A stretch of DNA of 64,000 bases. It comes from Gaiellales bacterium (GTDB lineage: Bacteria > Actinomycetota > Thermoleophilia > Gaiellales > SKUG01). Positions 8,365-53,876 of the stretch are shown here, piece after piece (position 1 is the stretch's first letter; each line of letters begins with the position of its first letter). Made by a program: the position numbers and the translations under genes. Where the stretch lies: positions 7,313 through 71,312 of the forward strand of contig JBBQUY010000002.1 in the NCBI GenBank assembly GCA_038212015.1. Reading direction: 5' to 3'. The notes under the pieces were generated by a model. The model had not been told where the DNA came from. It saw only the letters and a program-made list of their open reading frames with translations, and searched no databases.

Positions 8365-9534
8365 TCAGCCGATCGACGGGAAGCTCGTCACCTGCGTCGA
8401 ATCGTTGCCGGCGAGGTCCTCCGTCTGAAACGTGATCGTCGCCGCGATCCGACCTGATGCCGCTGCGGCCGTCCTGCCGGTTGCGGTCAGCGGGATGCGC
8501 GCGACCTTCGTACCGGCGCCGGCGAGCTCGACGGTCACCGATCCGAGCACCGTGCGCCCCAGGCGCAGCGTGACGTCGGAGGTGCAGTCCTCCGCGCAGC
8601 TGAGCGTGAAGTTGAGGCCGCGGTCGAGCCAGATGCTGCGGTAGACGGTGTAATTGCCGATCGCGACCTTCGGCGAAGTCTGGTCAGACGACACGTCGCC
8701 GGTCGCGGCCATCGCCGTGATCGCATCCACGCCGATGCGCGGATGGGTCGCCGCCGCCGTCGTCGCGCCCGTCGAGAGGTTCACGCTCCACAGTCGCACT
8801 CCATCCTGTCCGGTGGCAGCGAACGCAGCCCAGCCACGATCGCCGGAGCCGATGTCGAAGTGCGCCGCAGCACCCGCGTCCACACCGAGCGCTCCGACGG
8901 TCACGAGCGTTCCGTTGTTCGGCGGGTCCTGGCGAACGACGACGTTGCGGCCGCTGTCGATGTCGAGCAGCGTGGTGGTGGCGGGCGCCGGATCACCGAA
9001 CACGCTCGACGTATAGGCGGCAGCGCCGACGGCGGGATTCGCGCCGGCTCCTGCGTCCGTACCCAGGTATGCGAGGGGCCCGTCGGTCGCGACGAGCGCG
9101 CCGGTGTCCGGGTGCAGCCGCAGATTCTGGTCAGCGTCGGAAACGACGCGGATCCGGTCGGCCGTCGGATCGAAGTCGAACCCGAACTGCGTGCCGGTCA
9201 GCGTGACTGGTGAACCGATCTGCTTCGTCGAACCCGTTGCGGGATTGATCACGAGCAGGCGACCCGCGCTCGTGAGCGCGTACAGCTGGCCGGTGGCAGG
9301 GCGCTGGTCAAGGCCGACGATCGATTCGCCGCTGGCCATGCCGAGCAGGCTTTCACGCTCGAGCATGCGGCCAGGGGCCTGCGCGGTGAACGAGACGATC
9401 TGGTTCGCGGGGGTCGTCGCGTAGAAGAGTTCTGCAGCACCTGCGGTCGAGGGCGCAGCGAGTGCGGCTGCCGCGAGCGCGAGGACGGCGAGGGAGCGGC
9501 GTCGTTTCGGATTCGTCGTGTGTCGATCGGTCAT
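8365..9534 (-). CDS. Secreted DUF4394-like protein with signal peptide
   Basis: The real start is ATG 9534 (MTDRHTTNPKRRRSLAVLALAAAALAAPSTAGA signal peptide). The longer ORF in the track upstream is a frame artefact. Repeated YALTSAGRLLVINPATG and FGFDFDP segments match my recollection of DUF4394. Confidence 0.6.
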   Translation of the reverse strand: MTDRHTTNPKRRRSLAVLALAAAALAAPSTAGAAELFYATTPANQIVSFTAQAPGRMLERESLLGMASGESIVGLDQRPATGQLYALTSAGRLLVINPATGSTKQIGSPVTLTGTQFGFDFDPTADRIRVVSDADQNLRLHPDTGALVATDGPLAYLGTDAGAGANPAVGAAAYTSSVFGDPAPATTTLLDIDSGRNVVVRQDPPNNGTLVTVGALGVDAGAAAHFDIGSGDRGWAAFAATGQDGVRLWSVNLSTGATTAAATHPRIGVDAITAMAATGDVSSDQTSPKVAIGNYTVYRSIWLDRGLNFTLSCAEDCTSDVTLRLGRTVLGSVTVELAGAGTKVARIPLTATGRTAAAASGRIAATITFQTEDLAGNDSTQVTSFPSIG

Positions 9535-9715
9535 GGAGCGTTCCTTTCGGTCGGGTTCGAGGCCGCCAGGGAGGGCGAGCCCGCGAACGTACGCACGGAA
9601 GCTACGGGGGGTCGCCCGCTCATGCGCTGCAGTTACAGAATCCTGTGCGGTGGTGCGTACATCAAACGATCGGATCCCCCTAGGCGCCCAGCGAAGCGTG
9701 GCGTACGGTGGACAC

Positions 9716-10756
9716 GTGGAGTGCCGATCCACAGCCGCCACCGCCGTCCTGTCAGGTGGATCCACCGCGATCCCACCGGCCACGTCGAGCCCGATGACGC
9801 CGTCGACCACGACGTCGCTCGAGCCTGCGCTCGCACAGGCGCTCAGCGCGATATCCGAGGCGATCACCGCACTCACGCGCGTGCTGGGCGGCTCGCGGCA
9901 GCCGGTGGCGGGTGCCACGCTCACCTCGTCGCCCGCACCCGCGTCCGCGTCAGCGATGGCATCAGCACCGCTTGCTGCTGGCGCGAATGGCGGCGTGACC
10001 GCCGCCGCGCCCGCGTCCGGGGCTGCATCGACGCCCGCACCTGCGCCTGCGGGCGGTCGCAGCACCGCGCGAGTCGCGACCTTCAACGTGCTCGGCGCAT
10101 CGCACACCGATGCGGGCGGCAACAAGCCGGGCTGGGCAACGGGCGTCCAGCGGGTGCCGGAGATGATTCAGGAGCTGCGGTCGGGGGGCGTCGAGATCGC
10201 CGGTCTCCAGGAGTTCCAGCCGTCGCAGCAGCAGGCATTCAAGGCCGCGAAGACCGGGTACGAGCTCCATGGCGAGCGCGACAACGTGATCGCCTGGAGG
10301 TCCGACCGCTACCGCAAGGTCGGCGCCACGTCGCTCACGATTCCCTACTTCGAGGGCAGCCCACGCAAGATGCCCGCGGTCCAGCTCGAGGACCGGGCCA
10401 CGGGCAAGCGCGTGTGGGTGCTCAACGTCCACAACCCGGCCGATACCAAGGCCCATCCACGCAACGTCGCCAACCGGCGCGAGGCGGAGCGTCGCGAGCG
10501 AGCGTTCGTCGAGCAGCTCAAGCAGTCCGGCGTGCCCGTGCTCGTCGTCGGTGATTTCAACGACAACCGGGAGTCGATCGACGCGATGACTGCAGGTGGG
10601 CTCACGAGCGTCGCGCGTCCCAGGCAGAACGCGAGCGGCATCGACTGGGTGTTCGGCTCGCAGGGCGTAAACTTCGCCAACACCACGCGCGACTTCGGCC
10701 CGCGTCAGGACCGCACGAGCGACCACCCGATCGTCACCACCACCGCGACGTTCTGA
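9716..10756 (+). CDS. Endonuclease/exonuclease/phosphatase (EEP) family protein, probably secreted
   Basis: C-terminal domain with GLQEF, VLVVGDFN and SDHPIV motifs typical of the EEP fold. The start is uncertain: GTG 9716, or the conservative ATG 9794. It ends in TGATCA, which also contains the convergent gene's stop. Confidence 0.6.
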   Translation: MECRSTAATAVLSGGSTAIPPATSSPMTPSTTTSLEPALAQALSAISEAITALTRVLGGSRQPVAGATLTSSPAPASASAMASAPLAAGANGGVTAAAPASGAASTPAPAPAGGRSTARVATFNVLGASHTDAGGNKPGWATGVQRVPEMIQELRSGGVEIAGLQEFQPSQQQAFKAAKTGYELHGERDNVIAWRSDRYRKVGATSLTIPYFEGSPRKMPAVQLEDRATGKRVWVLNVHNPADTKAHPRNVANRREAERRERAFVEQLKQSGVPVLVVGDFNDNRESIDAMTAGGLTSVARPRQNASGIDWVFGSQGVNFANTTRDFGPRQDRTSDHPIVTTTATF

Positions 10757-17279: not shown

Positions 17280-17846
17280 TCAGCAGGCTGGATACGCTGG
17301 GGTTGATGCCGGGGCGCCCATGTAGCACGCACTCGCGCCCGGCCCCGTCCACTGCGCGCCGGAGTTCTTGCGCGCGATCACGCGAACCCAGTAGCGCGGC
17401 TCGGCGAGATAGCAGACCGAGACCCACGCGGTCTGCGTCGATGCACCGGTCGGGTTGCTCGGCGCTCCGCAGTTGGCGTCGACCGAGATGCCGACGCGGC
17501 CGGCCGAGACGGACTCAGGCGTGGACTTCATGTACGGCTGGCCGGTGAGGTTGCGCGGTCCGCGCTGCGTGGCCGCCGTGTTGTTGCCCCACCAGCGCTG
17601 CGTCGGCGGCCCGGTGGTCGGGGGGTGTCGATTCGCAAAATCCGCGTGGTACTGCGAAACGGCCTGCATATAGGCGCTGCCGACGGTCTTGCCGTCCTGG
17701 AAATACGTCGCCTTCTTCGCGCCGCCGAACATCTGGATCACGATCGCGAAGAGGATGGCGACGACGACCATCGCGATCAACATCTCGACCACGGTGAAGC
17801 CGCGCTCGCGGGCGTGCGTGTAGGTGCGTGAGGCGATTCGAGGCAT
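17280..17846 (-). CDS. Type IV pilin / pseudopilin with prepilin cleavage-methylation motif
   Basis: Start ATG 17846. The leader MPRIASRTYTHARERG is followed by FTVVEMLIAMVVVAILFAI (the G|FTxxE class III signal). Four C-terminal Cys. 188 aa. The upstream part of the track ORF is not coding. Confidence 0.7.
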   Translation of the reverse strand: MPRIASRTYTHARERGFTVVEMLIAMVVVAILFAIVIQMFGGAKKATYFQDGKTVGSAYMQAVSQYHADFANRHPPTTGPPTQRWWGNNTAATQRGPRNLTGQPYMKSTPESVSAGRVGISVDANCGAPSNPTGASTQTAWVSVCYLAEPRYWVRVIARKNSGAQWTGPGASACYMGAPASTPAYPAC

Positions 17847-17946
17847 CGATGGGCGTCCCTCGTGGGCGTGCGGACATCGAAGCATCGGCCGTGGGAGGCG
17901 CGGCCTTGAGCCCGGCGGCGAAGCGATCCGGTGGTAGTCTCGCGCC

Positions 17947-43819: not shown

Positions 43820-46351
43820 CTACCAGGTGAGCTGCTCGGCATCGCTCGCGCGAGCCGCGCGATGGGCATCCTCGAGCGAGGCGACCCACGCGTCGACCGG
43901 CGAGCTGGCGTAGACGCTCGGATCGGCGGGCCCGGGGTCGCGGTACTCCGCACGCAACGACGTTCGCCGCGCGATCTCCGCCTCGAAGTTGGCGAACACC
44001 TCGTCGAGACCACTGCGTACCGACGCCGGGACAGTGTCGCCGGCGATCTCGTCGACGGTCGCGATGCGCATGCGCAGCTCCTCGATCTGGTCGACGATGC
44101 GAATGCGCTCCCGATCGTAGGGGGGCATGTCGGCCAGCGAGTCGAGGTAGGAGCGAACGGACGCACCTCGACGAGCGGCGACGGCCAGTCGATCGGCGGC
44201 GGTCTCCGGAAGCGGTCCGTCCGCGAACATCGCCCAGGCCTGCAGGCCGGATGCGATGCTGCTCGCGCGATTCATCCCAGGGTTGGTGTTGTAGCCGGAC
44301 ACCGTCACGTTGAGCTGCCGGTCAAGGTTGAGCGACCCCGTCCGCTGGATCTCATCGCGAATGCGGATGACGTCGATGGCGACATCGTCCGGCATGCGCC
44401 ACGTCGGGCCCAGCGACTGATATTCGGTCATCGCTCGTTCCAGCAGCGCACGTTTTTCGTCGGGGTCCTTGACGTTGGAGATGTTGTGGAGCAGCTCATG
44501 CGTCAGCGTCGCGCGGCGGGCGGCGTCATCGATGTGTTCGGCGGATGTTGCGCCGGCGGCGGGAACCGTCAGTGCATCGAGCTCGCGGACGAGCCAGCGA
44601 GTTCGCGCTTCGGCGGCCTGGGCCGGACGGGCGCTCGGCGTGATGGCGCGCAGACCCCCGTCATCCCCGAACTGGCTGGCTCGGGCGGCGAGCTCGGTGC
44701 GGTAGTCACGGGTTGCGGCGAGCAGGTTTCCGAGCTCAAAGTCGCCCGGGCGACGTCCGGCAGCGGGATCGACACGGTCCAGGTGGCCGCGGAGGTTGGA
44801 GACCTGGGTCTCGAGGAGGCTGGCGGTCCTTTCGCCTACGAGGGCCGATGTGCCGAGCGCGCCGTCGGCCCGTGCCACCATGTCGGCTGTTGCCTCGCGA
44901 AGTCCGGGTTCGTCGAGGTATCGCTCGTCGGGAACCCAGCGGCTCTTGGTGATCTGCGAGTCCATCGCCGTTCCGATGAGCTCGACCTCGTCGAGCAGTT
45001 TCACGGCCTCCTGCATGTCCCGAGTCTGCGCCGCGTCCACCGGATGCGGCTTGATGCGTGGCAGATGCTCCACGAAGGCGGTCCGGGCTCGCGTACCGAC
45101 GTCGCCAGCGAGGAGGCCGCGCATCACGTCGAGATCGATTCGTTCGCCGGGGCGCGCGAGCACTTCCTGGATCTCCTCGCCGATCTCCGTGCCGGCGCGC
45201 AGCAGGTGCGGCTCGTTCGTGACGGTGGCGAGGTGGGCCTGCAGGCTTCGGATGTGGTCGAGCGTGCTGGTCATCAGCCTCGAGTCGCCTGATGCGAACC
45301 GGTCCCGCGAGGTGTTGGCGAGGCGAGCGCCGGCAGACACCCAGTCCCGAGCCAGGAACGCCGTGTCTCGCATGCTGTCGGGCGCGTCGGCGAGGAGCTG
45401 GTCGATCCGCGTCACGTCTTCCGATGCGCGGTCGAGTTTCTGTCGAGCCGCGATGAACGCGTCCCTGAACGGCTTGTCGTACGGATCAGCGGAACCCACC
45501 GCGACCTGGAGCGCCTCGTACGTCGCGGCGTGCTGCTCGAGGGCAGCGTCGGCGTGCGCGAGCACGGCCGCGTCATCGGCGAGTGACGCGAGACGCGGTG
45601 CGGTGGGCAGGGTGGCGCGGGCGGCATGTTCGGTGGCGATCGACCGGGCGCGGTTGGAGACGAGCATGCGCTCGGCCCATGAATCTGACGTCGGTGCCGT
45701 GGTCGGACCGAGGCCGCGCACGTGGTCGACCATCTCGCCCGCATCGCGGATGACCCGGTCGTACTCGGCCTTGGATGCGGTGCCCTGGCGCGCGGCCTGG
45801 AGGCGGGTCACGAGCGGATCGCCTGCTTCGTCGACCATGCCGGAGTCGCGGAGCTGCTCCATCGGTGCCGCCATCGCCCGCCGCACGGTCCCGAGGTGCT
45901 CCGAGCGCGTGCCCCGACTCATGCTGATGCCGAATGGACGGTCATCGATGATCGCCTTGGCCGATCGCAGCTGGTCGTTCGCGTCGAGCAGCAGGTGTCG
46001 TCGGATGACGTCGGCAGCGCCATCGACCGCGTCGAGCCCGCCCTGGGAGACGACATGGTCGACCCCGCCGAGCTCGTGGACCGCGCGCGTGACCGCGCTC
46101 AGATGGCCGAGCTGCGAGCGCGCGGTGGCGAGCTGCGGAAGGTTCAGGTCATAGGGAAGGTAGAAGCTGCGCAGTTCGCCGCCGAATCCCGATGGCATCG
46201 CGGCAGCCAGCTGCGTGGTGGCGTCGCTGACGGCCCCGGTGATCAGCCGTGTGTCGGTCGGGTTGGCGCCACCGGTTCCGGACGCCAGAATTCGATCCAC
46301 CACGCGCACTGCGTCGTCGATGCGTGACGCTGCTCCAAGCAGGTCGGTCAT
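43820..46351 (-). CDS. Large alpha-helical hypothetical protein (843 aa) with an HELLH motif
   Basis: Uninterrupted high-GC3 ORF. LTHELLHNIS with E 18 residues downstream suggests a zincin-like site. No signal peptide or TM. Confidence 0.6.
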   Translation of the reverse strand: MTDLLGAASRIDDAVRVVDRILASGTGGANPTDTRLITGAVSDATTQLAAAMPSGFGGELRSFYLPYDLNLPQLATARSQLGHLSAVTRAVHELGGVDHVVSQGGLDAVDGAADVIRRHLLLDANDQLRSAKAIIDDRPFGISMSRGTRSEHLGTVRRAMAAPMEQLRDSGMVDEAGDPLVTRLQAARQGTASKAEYDRVIRDAGEMVDHVRGLGPTTAPTSDSWAERMLVSNRARSIATEHAARATLPTAPRLASLADDAAVLAHADAALEQHAATYEALQVAVGSADPYDKPFRDAFIAARQKLDRASEDVTRIDQLLADAPDSMRDTAFLARDWVSAGARLANTSRDRFASGDSRLMTSTLDHIRSLQAHLATVTNEPHLLRAGTEIGEEIQEVLARPGERIDLDVMRGLLAGDVGTRARTAFVEHLPRIKPHPVDAAQTRDMQEAVKLLDEVELIGTAMDSQITKSRWVPDERYLDEPGLREATADMVARADGALGTSALVGERTASLLETQVSNLRGHLDRVDPAAGRRPGDFELGNLLAATRDYRTELAARASQFGDDGGLRAITPSARPAQAAEARTRWLVRELDALTVPAAGATSAEHIDDAARRATLTHELLHNISNVKDPDEKRALLERAMTEYQSLGPTWRMPDDVAIDVIRIRDEIQRTGSLNLDRQLNVTVSGYNTNPGMNRASSIASGLQAWAMFADGPLPETAADRLAVAARRGASVRSYLDSLADMPPYDRERIRIVDQIEELRMRIATVDEIAGDTVPASVRSGLDEVFANFEAEIARRTSLRAEYRDPGPADPSVYASSPVDAWVASLEDAHRAARASDAEQLTW

Positions 46352-48177: not shown

Positions 48178-49137
48178 CTACGCGGGTGCCGAGACGGGAT
48201 CGTACTCTCGCTCGGGCGCGTGGTGCGACGGTTTCCGGGGAGGGCTGGCCTCGTGCGGCAGCACGGCGTCCGCGGCGATGCGCACGGCGACGAGCCAGAT
48301 GAGCGCCGCGTTCGCGACGTGGGCGAGCACGACCCCCCACGGCAGGCCGGTCCGGTACTGGATCTCGCCGAGCGCAACCTGTCCGACGACGAGCACGAGC
48401 AGCAGTCCGAGGTCGCGGAACGCGACGCCGCGCTGCTGTCGCAGCCACGTCAGCGCGAGCACCAGCACCAGGAATATGTAGGCGCCGCGGGCGTGGAGCG
48501 TGAGGGCAAGGTCGAAGATCCCGAATCGGTCGACGTCCTGGCCGGTGCCGGAGGCACCCGAATGCGGTCCGGATGCGGTCGTCAGCACGCCGGCGACGAT
48601 CACCGCGAGCAGCGAAGCGAGCATCACGGCCGCGGCGCCGGTGCGCAGAGCCACGTGGCGCGCGGGACGGGCGGGAGCTGCGCTGCCTGCCGCGTGAACG
48701 GCGAATGCGGCGGTCGCAAGCAGTCCGATGCTGACGAGGAAATGGACGGCGACGATCTGCGGCGGCAGTTCCAGGATCACGGTCAATGCACCGACGCCCG
48801 CCTGCACCAGCACGCCAAGGACCGTGAGGCTGGTTGCCAGTCGCAGATCGCGGCGAACTGGGCCCGCCAGTCGCCAGCAGGTCCAGAGAGCGATGAGCGC
48901 GGTGAGCAGCGTCGGCGCGGCGGTCATCCGGTTGAGGAACTCCACCATCGGGTGGAACGACAGCTCGGGCGTGGCGCTGCTCGTCGTGCAGGTCGGCCAG
49001 TTGGGACAGCCGAGTCCGGACCCGGTGAGGCGCACAGTGGCGCCCGTCACGACGATGAACCACTGAAAGAACAGCGCCACGACCGTCGCGCGGCGGGCGG
49101 TCTCACGGGTATACGGGCCGAGCAGAAAGTGTCGCAT
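48178..49137 (-). CDS. ctaA: Heme A synthase (COX15/CtaA family)
   Basis: Start ATG 49137. VRLTGSGLGCPNWPTC motif. Multi-TM with conserved His. The longer TTG-initiated track ORF is probably an over-extension. Confidence 0.75.
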   Translation of the reverse strand: MRHFLLGPYTRETARRATVVALFFQWFIVVTGATVRLTGSGLGCPNWPTCTTSSATPELSFHPMVEFLNRMTAAPTLLTALIALWTCWRLAGPVRRDLRLATSLTVLGVLVQAGVGALTVILELPPQIVAVHFLVSIGLLATAAFAVHAAGSAAPARPARHVALRTGAAAVMLASLLAVIVAGVLTTASGPHSGASGTGQDVDRFGIFDLALTLHARGAYIFLVLVLALTWLRQQRGVAFRDLGLLLVLVVGQVALGEIQYRTGLPWGVVLAHVANAALIWLVAVRIAADAVLPHEASPPRKPSHHAPEREYDPVSAPA

Positions 49138-49397
49138 CGCGCCTGAAGCGTAGTGGACATGGCCGCGTCGTGCGCCGGGGACGGACCGGGTCGAGTCACG
49201 GTGGAATGCGGGTTTTCGAGCGAGAAGGCCACGAAAGCGGCCACCCCGGGGGCCATCGAAGGCCAACGCACCATGGTTTTCGAGCCGACGACGGGGGCCC
49301 GAGGCGATGAAAAGGGTGCCGAAGCAAAAGTCGGCGGTGCGGTACCCCGTCCGGGGCCCGGATCGGCTGACTGCCTTTCACGAGGAGAAGGATCGAC

Positions 49398-50000
49398 GTG
49401 AACTCCCCCTACACCAAGCATCTCGACGCGGTCGACCACACGACCCACTCGACCGCACTGACGGTCCCCACGTATGCAGCAGCACCGATGCATGCACCGC
49501 AGCCCCCGATGGTCATCCAGTCCGGTGGCGACAGCGGTGGCAGCAAGGCAGGAATCGCACTCATTGCGATCGTGCTGGCTATCGTCGGAACCGCAGCAGG
49601 ATTTGCGATCGGCAAGGGCTCCGGCCCGAGCTGGAACGAGCTCCGCCGATTCGAGGCACTCTCGGGTCGTGAAGGTGAGATCCGCGGTCGTGACGCTGGC
49701 TGGAGCCAGGGTCGCAAGCAGGGTCGCACCGAGATGGAGTTCCTCGCACAGTACGAGAAGCTCCGAACGCAGGCCACCGCCTTCAGCCAGGGCTACCGCC
49801 AGGGTCGCGGCATCGGTCAGCAGATGGGTCGCGATCAGTACCAGTACCGCTACCAGAACCGCGGCTACGGCTACGGTCGAGGCTACGGTCGAGGCTACGG
49901 CCGCGGCTACGGCTACGGCGGACGGGTCGGCGGTGCCATCGGCAACGCCCAGGCTCTCGCCAACGCCACGGGCAGCCCGGTCGACGTCATCATCGGCTAG
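49398..50000 (+). CDS. Single-pass membrane protein with RGYG-repeat C-terminus (paralog of 20653-21216)
   Basis: GTG start with GAGGAGAAGGA upstream. TM segment IALIAIVLAIVGTAAGFAIG. C-terminal (GYGR)n. Confidence 0.55.
   Translation: MNSPYTKHLDAVDHTTHSTALTVPTYAAAPMHAPQPPMVIQSGGDSGGSKAGIALIAIVLAIVGTAAGFAIGKGSGPSWNELRRFEALSGREGEIRGRDAGWSQGRKQGRTEMEFLAQYEKLRTQATAFSQGYRQGRGIGQQMGRDQYQYRYQNRGYGYGRGYGRGYGRGYGYGGRVGGAIGNAQALANATGSPVDVIIG
49862..49919 (+). repeat. Tandem 12-nt repeats (ggctacggtcga) encoding GYGR units
   Basis: Seen directly in the sequence. Confidence 0.6.
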
Positions 50001-50213: not shown

Positions 50214-50647
50214 ATGAACCGCAAGTTCCGACTGATCGCAGCGCTGGGCATGGCCGTGATGCTCGCCACCTTCATGGCATACGTCGCCATCAAGGGCGGC
50301 GACGTGCAGGAGCCGCTGCTGCAGGCGCACGAGCTCGTCACCAAGCGTGAGCTCGCGCAGTCACAGACCGTGCAGGTCGACGGCATCGCCGCCGGACCGA
50401 TCACGGGTGAGCAGGGCGAGCGCTTCCGCTTCTACGTCACCGATCGCGACGGCGACAACCGCACGCTCGTCGACTACAAGGGCGCGGTGCCGGATGCGTT
50501 CCGCGTGGGACGCAACGTGATCGTCACGGGCAAGCTCGTGCAGGATCCCAAGTCCGGCGACCAGATCTTCAAGGCGGAGCCGGGTTCGCTCGTCACGAAG
50601 TGTCCGTCGAAGTTCGAATCCGAGGGCGGCACGAGCCGGTCGGACTC

Positions 50648-50651
<4 letters not shown>
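50214..50651 (+). CDS. ccmE: Cytochrome c-type biogenesis heme chaperone CcmE, variant with C-P-S-K-F in place of H-x3-Y
   Basis: N-terminal TM and OB-fold core (NVIVTGKLV). The C-terminal ...VTKCPSKFESEGG sits where canonical CcmE has LAKHDENY. Confidence 0.8.
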
Positions 50652-52795
<2,144 letters not shown>

Positions 52796-53876
52796 CGGGA
52801 CGGCCGCGACCGTGCCTGGTGGCACGACGCCCGCGGTGGTGCCCGTACCCGCCGACCAGTCGGCGGAGAACGTCGTGTACCTCGGGGAAGAGCATGGCAT
52901 CGCCGCCGATCACGGCGCGATCGCACCGAACCCCCGTGCCGGCGACTACGACAGCGCGGCGCAGCAGCTTGCCGATACGCCGCAGGCGCAGCCGCCCAAC
53001 GACACGTCATCACAGGATCCACCGCTCCCGCCACCCACGCCGATCCGGCCACCCGAGACGGAGCCCGTCTACAACGAGATCGAGGCGCTGCGCCAGCGCG
53101 CCGCCGAACTCGAGGCGGCCCTGCCGGCGTTCGGCTCGCACGGCCCGATCCCGCAGCAGCACGAGCTCGTCCCGCCTCCGCGCGTCGACGACAACCCGTT
53201 CGGCGATTTCTTCGGCGACGGCGCATCCGCCTGGCTCGAGGACGACGAGGAAGACGACGGGCCCGAGATCACGCAGCCGCGCTTCGTCGGCACGATGCTG
53301 GCGGCAGGCGCCGTGATGATGCTGCTCGCCGCATGGGCAGTGTGGGGGGTCGCGATCTGGCGCGGCGCGGGTGGCGCCGAGGCAGGTGGGTTCCTGCTGC
53401 TGTCGATGCTGTTGTGGATCCGGTACCTGTCGATGCCGCGCGAGCAGCAGCACGCGTGGATGCTCAAGCGACACATGCGCGTGAGGTCGTTCGTCGAACG
53501 GCGCGTCTCACCGATTCGCACCCGCACGGAAGGACACGTCGTGATGCGGTCCGAGCGCGGCCGGTACCGCGCCATGCGCGACGAGCGAACGCGCCGCATC
53601 AACTCGCTCGGCGAAGGTGCCTACCGCATGTTCCGGCAGGGCACGCTGCAGCCGGATCTGCATGCCGGAGCGCAGCGAGTCCTGGCGATGGAACGCCAGA
53701 TGCTCGTCCAGGACCAGCGCATTCACGGGCTCATGCAGGAACGCCTCGCAGGACAGCGTGCGGGTGAAGATGCGGGAGGCCACGTGGGGCACGATCCGGC
53801 CTCCGGCGTGCCCGGGGGCGGCCACCCAGCCCCCTGACCTCCGCGGAAAACCCCCGCATGCTGCTGTACTTGCGGC

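Follow-up and report, generated by a model that had tools for sequence, protein, structure and literature searches.

The 64-kb stretch of DNA analysed here (the window throughout) carries on its forward strand, at 50214..50651, a gene for a 145-aa heme chaperone, ccmE, which is assigned to the Cys-type (System I*) by its Pfam family, its homologues and AF2/Foldseek comparison. The translation starts MNRKFRLIAALGMAVMLATFMAYVAIKGG and its C-terminal end reads ...LVTKCPSKFESEGGTSRSDS / ...GSLVTKCPSKFESEGGTSRSDS. A preliminary description of the sequence had already called this reading frame CcmE, and the identification is borne out: residues 37-136 score 51.6 bits as the CcmE domain (PF03100), for which the gathering cut-off is 24.6, the same domain is present in all 97 of the 97 database homologues, the modelled fold is of OB type and structural searches return CcmE. 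Every NCBIfam CcmE equivalog model scores far under threshold, the best reaching 40 bits against 152 with all cut-offs at or above 126, so that the window protein is best described as a divergent CcmE; the codon-position GC of the frame is gene-like. The AF2 model, built from 22 relatives (mean pLDDT 81), comprises a helix at residues 3-28, the strands of an OB-type barrel and, from residue 134 on, a tail modelled at low confidence. The helix falls on hydrophobic sequence (FRLIAALGMAVMLATFMAYVAI) and is the predicted N-terminal membrane anchor (approximately residues 3-28; 50220..50297, forward strand). When the model is compared with the PDB by Foldseek, the first match is 8CE8_E, the E. coli CcmE of the CcmABCDE complex, and further CcmE structures, namely 1LM0, 1J6Q (Shewanella), 1SR3 (E. 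coli) and 2KCT (D. vulgaris), are interspersed with other OB-fold proteins. The architecture that characterises CcmE, an N-terminal anchor, an OB barrel and a flexible tail with the heme-binding residue, is recovered by model and structural matches alike. The ccmE gene is genuine and conserved in relatives, and its host is an uncultured member of the Thermoleophilia.

Immediately downstream, with its ATG overlapping the ccmE stop codon (ATGA), lies ccmF (50648..52795, forward strand), encoding the 715-aa heme lyase/reductase subunit (PF01578, 121 bits; PF16327, 172 bits). Its alignment with CcmF of T. thermophilus (6ZMQ; E = 4e-85) extends over 614 residues; the protein contains the WWD motif WGGYWAWD at 51413-51436 and conserves His193, His281, His323 and His526 in alignment with 6ZMQ; a CcmF partner with a WWD domain and four His ligands, as System I* has, is therefore present. 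The spacing of the first three of these histidines is exactly that of E. coli H173, H261 and H303. The window CcmF reaches the cut-off of no NCBIfam CcmF or NrfE model, and the arrangement of ccmE directly followed by ccmF holds across Thermoleophilia.

On the other side of ccmE its divergent neighbour is ctaA (heme A synthase, COX15-CtaA; 48178..49266, reverse strand; PF02628, 73 bits); a gene for a Bcp-type peroxiredoxin also lies upstream of ccmE and on the opposite strand. Between ctaA and ccmE stands a forward-strand gene for a 200-aa protein (49398..50000) with no family match, which has a membrane helix and a C-terminal Gly/Tyr/Arg repeat (GYGYGRGYGRGYGRGYGYGG); the metagenomic contig L001 has a gene of about the same length at this place. 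The 3' end of ccmF is overlapped by a frame for a 376-aa zinc-ribbon and transmembrane protein (52707..53837, forward strand) that matches no Pfam or NCBIfam family at cut-off, and that leads from an N-terminal zinc ribbon (CxxC...CxxC) through a Pro-rich linker and two predicted membrane helices to a C-terminus that is basic and helical. It is kept at that position only in the window clade (60% identity in L001, ~31-35% in a second metagenomic contig, L002) and may be a clade-specific CcmF accessory factor, its membership of the system being uncertain. An M23 peptidase gene and copCD follow downstream, and the order ctaA - x - ccmE - ccmF - x - M23 - copCD recurs in L001 and L002.

Across Gaiellales, Thermoleophilaceae and Solirubrobacterales, the gene right after ccmF encodes a small membrane-anchored helical protein (L030 12304..12723; L083 17518..17799, reverse strand; about 34 more loci) that weakly resembles the N-terminal domain of CcmI (TIGR03142, 22.1 bits against a cut-off of 29.3) and bears no relation to the zinc-ribbon protein that the window clade has in its place. 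Elsewhere in the window, an 843-aa reading frame (43820..46351, reverse strand), which matches no Pfam family but has the codon bias of a gene, lies between YgjP-like and methyltransferase genes; as these flanking genes adjoin one another in L001 and L002, the frame looks like a lineage-specific insertion. The remaining genes of the window are of the housekeeping kind: gap-pgk-tpi-gpmI, argS, pntAB, lgt, guaA, an IMPDH-family gene and one tRNA-Gly.

The CPSKF motif and its register

The heme-binding motif of the window protein, LVTKCPSKF, spans residues 126-134 (50589..50615, forward strand; mean column conservation 0.99 in the window clade), with Cys130 encoded by TGT (50601-50603) and Phe134, at the usual Tyr position, by TTC (50613-50615). 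Set against the HxxxY of canonical System I, neither ligand position agrees, Cys130 standing at the His position and Phe134 at the Tyr position. Set against System I*, the Cys for His in a CPSK context does agree, LVTKCPSK being invariant or nearly so, and the Tyr of CxxxY is replaced by Phe. Both replacements had been proposed in the preliminary description, the first as a feature of the known CxxxY class, and both stand on alignment to CPSKY relatives and to 2KCT. The nine residues LVTKCPSK+F/Y run without a gap through 22 diverse relatives (41-88% identity), in which L126, T128, K129, C130, P131 and S132 are invariant, and more distant relatives place LVTKCPSKY or LVTKCPSRY in the very columns of the window LVTKCPSKF; the family alignment that had been called for thus contains no register shift, and Phe does occupy the Tyr position. 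Searched against the PDB, a profile of the 22-sequence alignment matched 2KCT, the CcmE of D. vulgaris, best among the solved structures (E = 4.5e-14), pairing ...sLvtkCPskf with ...TLMTKCP and so placing Cys130 on the known heme-binding Cys of that protein. Downstream of the motif, neither the window protein nor 176 of 181 relatives has any His, Tyr, Met or Cys, and a shifted ligand is therefore excluded. Amongst 93 members of the window clade (45-97% identity) the motif columns are ~99% conserved, compared with an OB-domain mean of 73%, from which it follows that the motif is under purifying selection.

The motif gives way to a short tail, ESEGGTSRSDS (residues 135-145; 50616..50648, forward strand), which is predicted to be disordered (pLDDT <50 across residues 134-145) and is nevertheless conserved within the window clade, its columns averaging 0.76 where those of the OB domain average 0.73, and Glu135 standing at 83%. 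In other F-type clades the Phe is followed by T, Q, K, S or A and the tails are quite different, as in CPSKFTKDE, CPSKFQAKP and CPSKFKKKR. The unusual conservation of the tail in the window clade could reflect a compensating function.

System I*, with Cys for His in CcmE, has been an established class since 2006 (Allen 2006, Stevens 2011). For the Cys-type CcmEs of D. desulfuricans and M. acetivorans, reviews report both heme binding at the Cys and maturation of cytochromes c (PMC9084895; PMC3601427). In CcmE experiments His and Cys proved non-interchangeable (PMC9084895). Lack of CcmH and CcmG, an original trait of System I*, was later seen not to be universal, about a third of System I* bacteria having CcmH (PMC3601427). 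Stevens et al. 2011 recorded CPSKY in 25 of 36 System I* genomes and a Tyr-to-Phe change in 4 of the 36 (PMC3601427); since those four cases were counted inside System I*, Tyr is usual in the class but does not define it. Shevket et al. 2018 found Phe at the Tyr134 position in ~3% of all CcmEs and described Tyr134 as 'not essential' (PMC6204919). The CPSKF motif, published in 2011 and again in 2018, is therefore not new, and the novelty implied for CxxxF at the outset falls away. The literature searched contains no study of F-type CcmE (CPSKF, Y134F) or of Ccm in Thermoleophilia.

With the CPSKY CcmEs of System I* (Desulfovibrio, 2KCT; M. acetivorans, C120) the window protein shares its Pfam family, OB fold, N-terminal anchor and flexible tail, the Cys in a ...TKCPSK context and an adjacent ccmF. 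It differs from them in the Phe four residues after the Cys, where they have Tyr; in its host, which belongs to a monoderm-lineage actinobacterial class, Thermoleophilia; in an apparent separation of ccmE-ccmF from ccmABCD; and, for the window clade as a whole, in the conserved acidic, Gly-rich tail and the zinc-ribbon membrane protein after ccmF. The canonical E. coli CcmE (VLAKHDENY; 1SR3, 8CE8 chain E) has the same fold, topology and Y-x-G-x-x-P-D-x-F-R-x-G core, and its CcmF has the same four His and WWD motif, whereas in the window protein His130 has become Cys, Tyr134 has become Phe and scores to the NCBIfam equivalogs lie far under cut-off.

Tyrosine and phenylalanine among relatives

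On the sequences surveyed, the Phe variant is common in Thermoleophilia. CPSKF occurs in 88 of the 97 first database homologues and is universal down to ~40% identity, while the nine with Tyr at the motif position are all among the most distant matches. A scan of GTDB at one genome per species gave 534 confirmed relatives, of which the best 80 were examined; these come nearly all from Thermoleophilia or Actinomycetota MAGs, and the earlier remark that System I is uncommon in actinobacteria proves inapplicable to Thermoleophilia. By CcmE identity the closest GTDB genomes are L003 at 80% (JBDHZF01) and L004 at 66% (JAOPYW01). Together with L001 and L002, the best 80 GTDB loci contain 51 copies of CPSKY, mostly from Gaiellales, and 32 of CPSKF, from Thermoleophilaceae, Solirubrobacterales, Conexibacteraceae and the window lineage. 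Run in full over 1.84 billion representatives, HMMER produced 4092 matches; the best 150 clusters (50% identity) have ~74 Tyr, ~58 Phe and 1 Met at the Tyr position, and the full-length clusters among them are all Cys-type but one. [quoted passage not shown]

When 181 related CcmEs are compared, 123 read CPSKF and 58 CPSKY, with nothing else at that position. In a neighbour-joining tree of these sequences (n = 181) the Y and F states fall into three blocks and at least five Y/F changes are required. P0096 (Y) and P0086/88/93 (F) have near-identical backgrounds that differ only at the Y/F residue, and Y or F is likewise all that separates L074 from its close relatives L076/L079. These counts bear directly on the suspicion, raised with the motif itself, that TTC could be a TAC, one transversion away, that was misread in sequencing or assembly, or that frame or register had been mistaken. 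Phe recurs in 123 of the 181 sequences, which are independent and derive from many samples and assemblies, the register is fixed by the gapless alignment, and the codon-position GC of the frame is that of a gene; the chance that the Phe is an artefact can be treated as negligible. On the homologue, alignment and tail data we reject a sequencing error, a shift of register and any His or Tyr concealed in the tail.

The Thermoleophilia CPSKY CcmEs, such as those of Gaiellales MAGs (e.g. L030), are ~40% identical to the window protein and share its LVTKCPSK context, and their loci likewise have ccmF directly downstream and an M23 peptidase gene further on. They differ in keeping the Tyr, in having the small CcmI-N-like gene where the window clade has the zinc-ribbon gene, and in the WWD motif of their CcmF, which in Gaiellales (L030 10382..12388 and other loci) is WGGYYAWD, with Tyr for the second member of the Trp pair, not WGGYWAWD. 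The WGGYYAWD form follows taxonomic order, not the Y/F state of CcmE. A strict link between Y/F state and WWD variant was considered and rejected, as the Y-type loci L033, L057 and L074 have the W-type motif of the F-type loci (WGG[YF]W[AG]WD).

The remainder of the Ccm pathway

As the preliminary description had allowed for, ccmABCD, ccmH and ccmG do not adjoin ccmE: tblastn with Thermoleophilia queries from L083 located no ccmA, ccmB, ccmC, ccmD or ccmH in the 64-kb window, and no ccmG lies within it. The one WWD motif of the window is that inside CcmF. No genuine CXXCH protein, nor any in-gene CXXCH, occurs within the 64 kb; the sole CXXCH string, near 8827 on the minus strand, falls in the region of a 586-aa DUF4394 protein (8365..10125, reverse strand; 235 bits), and no cytochrome is assigned to it. 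A CcmH-like gene is absent from the window and from L001-L004, and CcmH (PF03918) is found near ccmE in L083, L065, L078, L073, L035, L074 and L019. Searches by tblastn with E. coli CcmB, CcmC and CcmH sequences gave one CcmC and a few CcmH matches in related loci.

More complete arrangements are found in related Thermoleophilia MAGs. In one of these (L017 and L083, on the same contig) the genes run ccmA - ccmB - ccmC - CcmD-family gene - hemA - second ccmE and onward through a multi-CXXCH cytochrome - ccmH (PF03918) - cytochrome c - CcmI-N-like gene - ccmF - ccmE; in a second (L084), ccmABCD is embedded among heme-biosynthesis genes. The CcmD-family model TIGR04391 (cut-off 24) scores 31.8 bits in L083, above the cut-off, and 21.6 bits in L084, below it. 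As these MAGs combine a CPSKF ccmE with ccmABCD, and one of them with ccmH too, F-type CcmE coexists with a complete Ccm set in Thermoleophilia. The two ccmE copies on the L017 contig (10001..10393 and 17495..17896) are both CPSKF; one lies by ccmF, the other by hemA, ccmABCD, ccmH and multi-CXXCH cytochromes. The CcmC of L017 (19636..20385, reverse strand) reads WGKWWVWS, with Ser for the usual Asp of the WWD motif.

Proposed heme handling by an F-type CcmE

Current models of System I give Tyr134 a specific job. In those built on E. coli, the heme ligand P-His2 is exchanged for Tyr134 as holo-CcmE leaves CcmC, and Tyr134 is in turn displaced by P-His2 of CcmF on delivery (PMC9616876; PMC10663686). 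Thermoleophilia present a large conserved group of CcmEs that lack the phenol oxygen and stand beside Tyr-bearing sisters. We think it probable, with good confidence, that the window gene encodes a functional, membrane-anchored Cys-type System I* CcmE in which Phe134 is tolerated and fixed in the lineage, an aromatic ring being needed at that position and a phenolate ligand dispensable. Heme would be handed over by CcmC within a CcmABCD complex encoded elsewhere in the genome and would be attached covalently to Cys130, where the flexible tail begins. CcmE would then carry it to the adjacent and, by the overlap of their reading frames, presumably translationally coupled CcmF, where the periplasmic His193 and His323 together with the WWD domain may take the heme, the b-heme of CcmF (predicted ligands His281 and His526) would reduce it, and transfer to CXXCH apocytochromes would follow. 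The aromatic ring of Phe134 may pack against the porphyrin, and heme in transit would probably have water, or no protein ligand, on the Phe134 face. In the 181 sequences position 134 holds only Tyr or Phe, and these interchange among close relatives that have one type of CcmF in common, which is most simply read as selection for an aromatic ring. The repeated interchange within one family with the same kind of CcmF likewise favours a tolerated aromatic substitution over the different transfer chemistry that had been suggested from the motif at the outset; a different iron ligation in F-type CcmE is possible. Against this reading count the inability of Phe to make the E. coli switch from P-His2 to Tyr134, the unusual conservation of the tail in the window clade, and a 64-kb window without ccmABCD, ccmH, ccmG or a genuine CXXCH protein.

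On a rival reading the missing iron ligand would be supplied by a tail carboxylate (Glu135, Glu137) or by one of the motif lysines (Lys129, Lys133), and heme ligation and release would then truly differ from those of Tyr-type CcmE. The E. coli models require the ligand switch to Tyr134 for release (PMC9616876), the tail of the window clade is conserved like a folded domain (0.76 against 0.73) though predicted to be disordered, and Met, a real heme ligand, takes this position in the CPSKM cluster P0319. Such compensated ligation is nevertheless unlikely, as the differing tails of the other F-type clades leave no common substitute ligand, Y-type relatives conserve Lys129 and Lys133 just as well, 176 of the 181 tails offer no His, Tyr, Met or Cys, and some close relatives (P0096 against P0086/88/93, L074 against L076/L079) are told apart only by Y or F. 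There is a slimmer chance that ccmE-ccmF is a specialised pair or a relic, whether a dedicated lyase of the NrfE kind, a heme module linked to ctaA and copper, or a remnant persisting beside System II. The conserved neighbourhood from ctaA through ccmE-ccmF and M23 to copCD could be understood in that way, as could a CcmF that scores under every NCBIfam CcmF/NrfE cut-off and a 64-kb window with no ccmABCD, ccmH or cytochrome c gene. Strong purifying selection on the motif and on the CcmF histidines, however, rules out a relic; related Thermoleophilia MAGs possess ccmABCD and have ccmE adjoining multi-heme cytochromes and ccmH; and the adjacency of ccmE and ccmF is kept across the class. We know of no heme A pathway that uses CcmE, which counts against a module linked to ctaA.

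A working chaperone with a tolerated Phe has consequences beyond this locus. We suggest tentatively, at a little under even confidence, that Cys-type chaperones work independently of a protein ligand through ring stacking, or else through a clade-specific ligation by tail carboxylates, Tyr and Phe having been swapped in both directions at least five times. If F-type holo-CcmE does carry its heme with no protein axial ligand, the His-to-Tyr switch would not be a general requirement of System I. The sequence observation itself having been published in 2011 and 2018, the value of the present data lies in their scope and testability: the F/Y pairs of Thermoleophilia, set in near-identical backgrounds, amount to a natural experiment and a ready-made test of the Tyr-ligand model. 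The same survey shows a Ccm-type pathway, and not System II alone, to be in wide use in a deep class of actinobacteria. Homologues of the CcmC type found in L017/L083 are abundant, with 8000 matches, the top ones at 65-90% identity.
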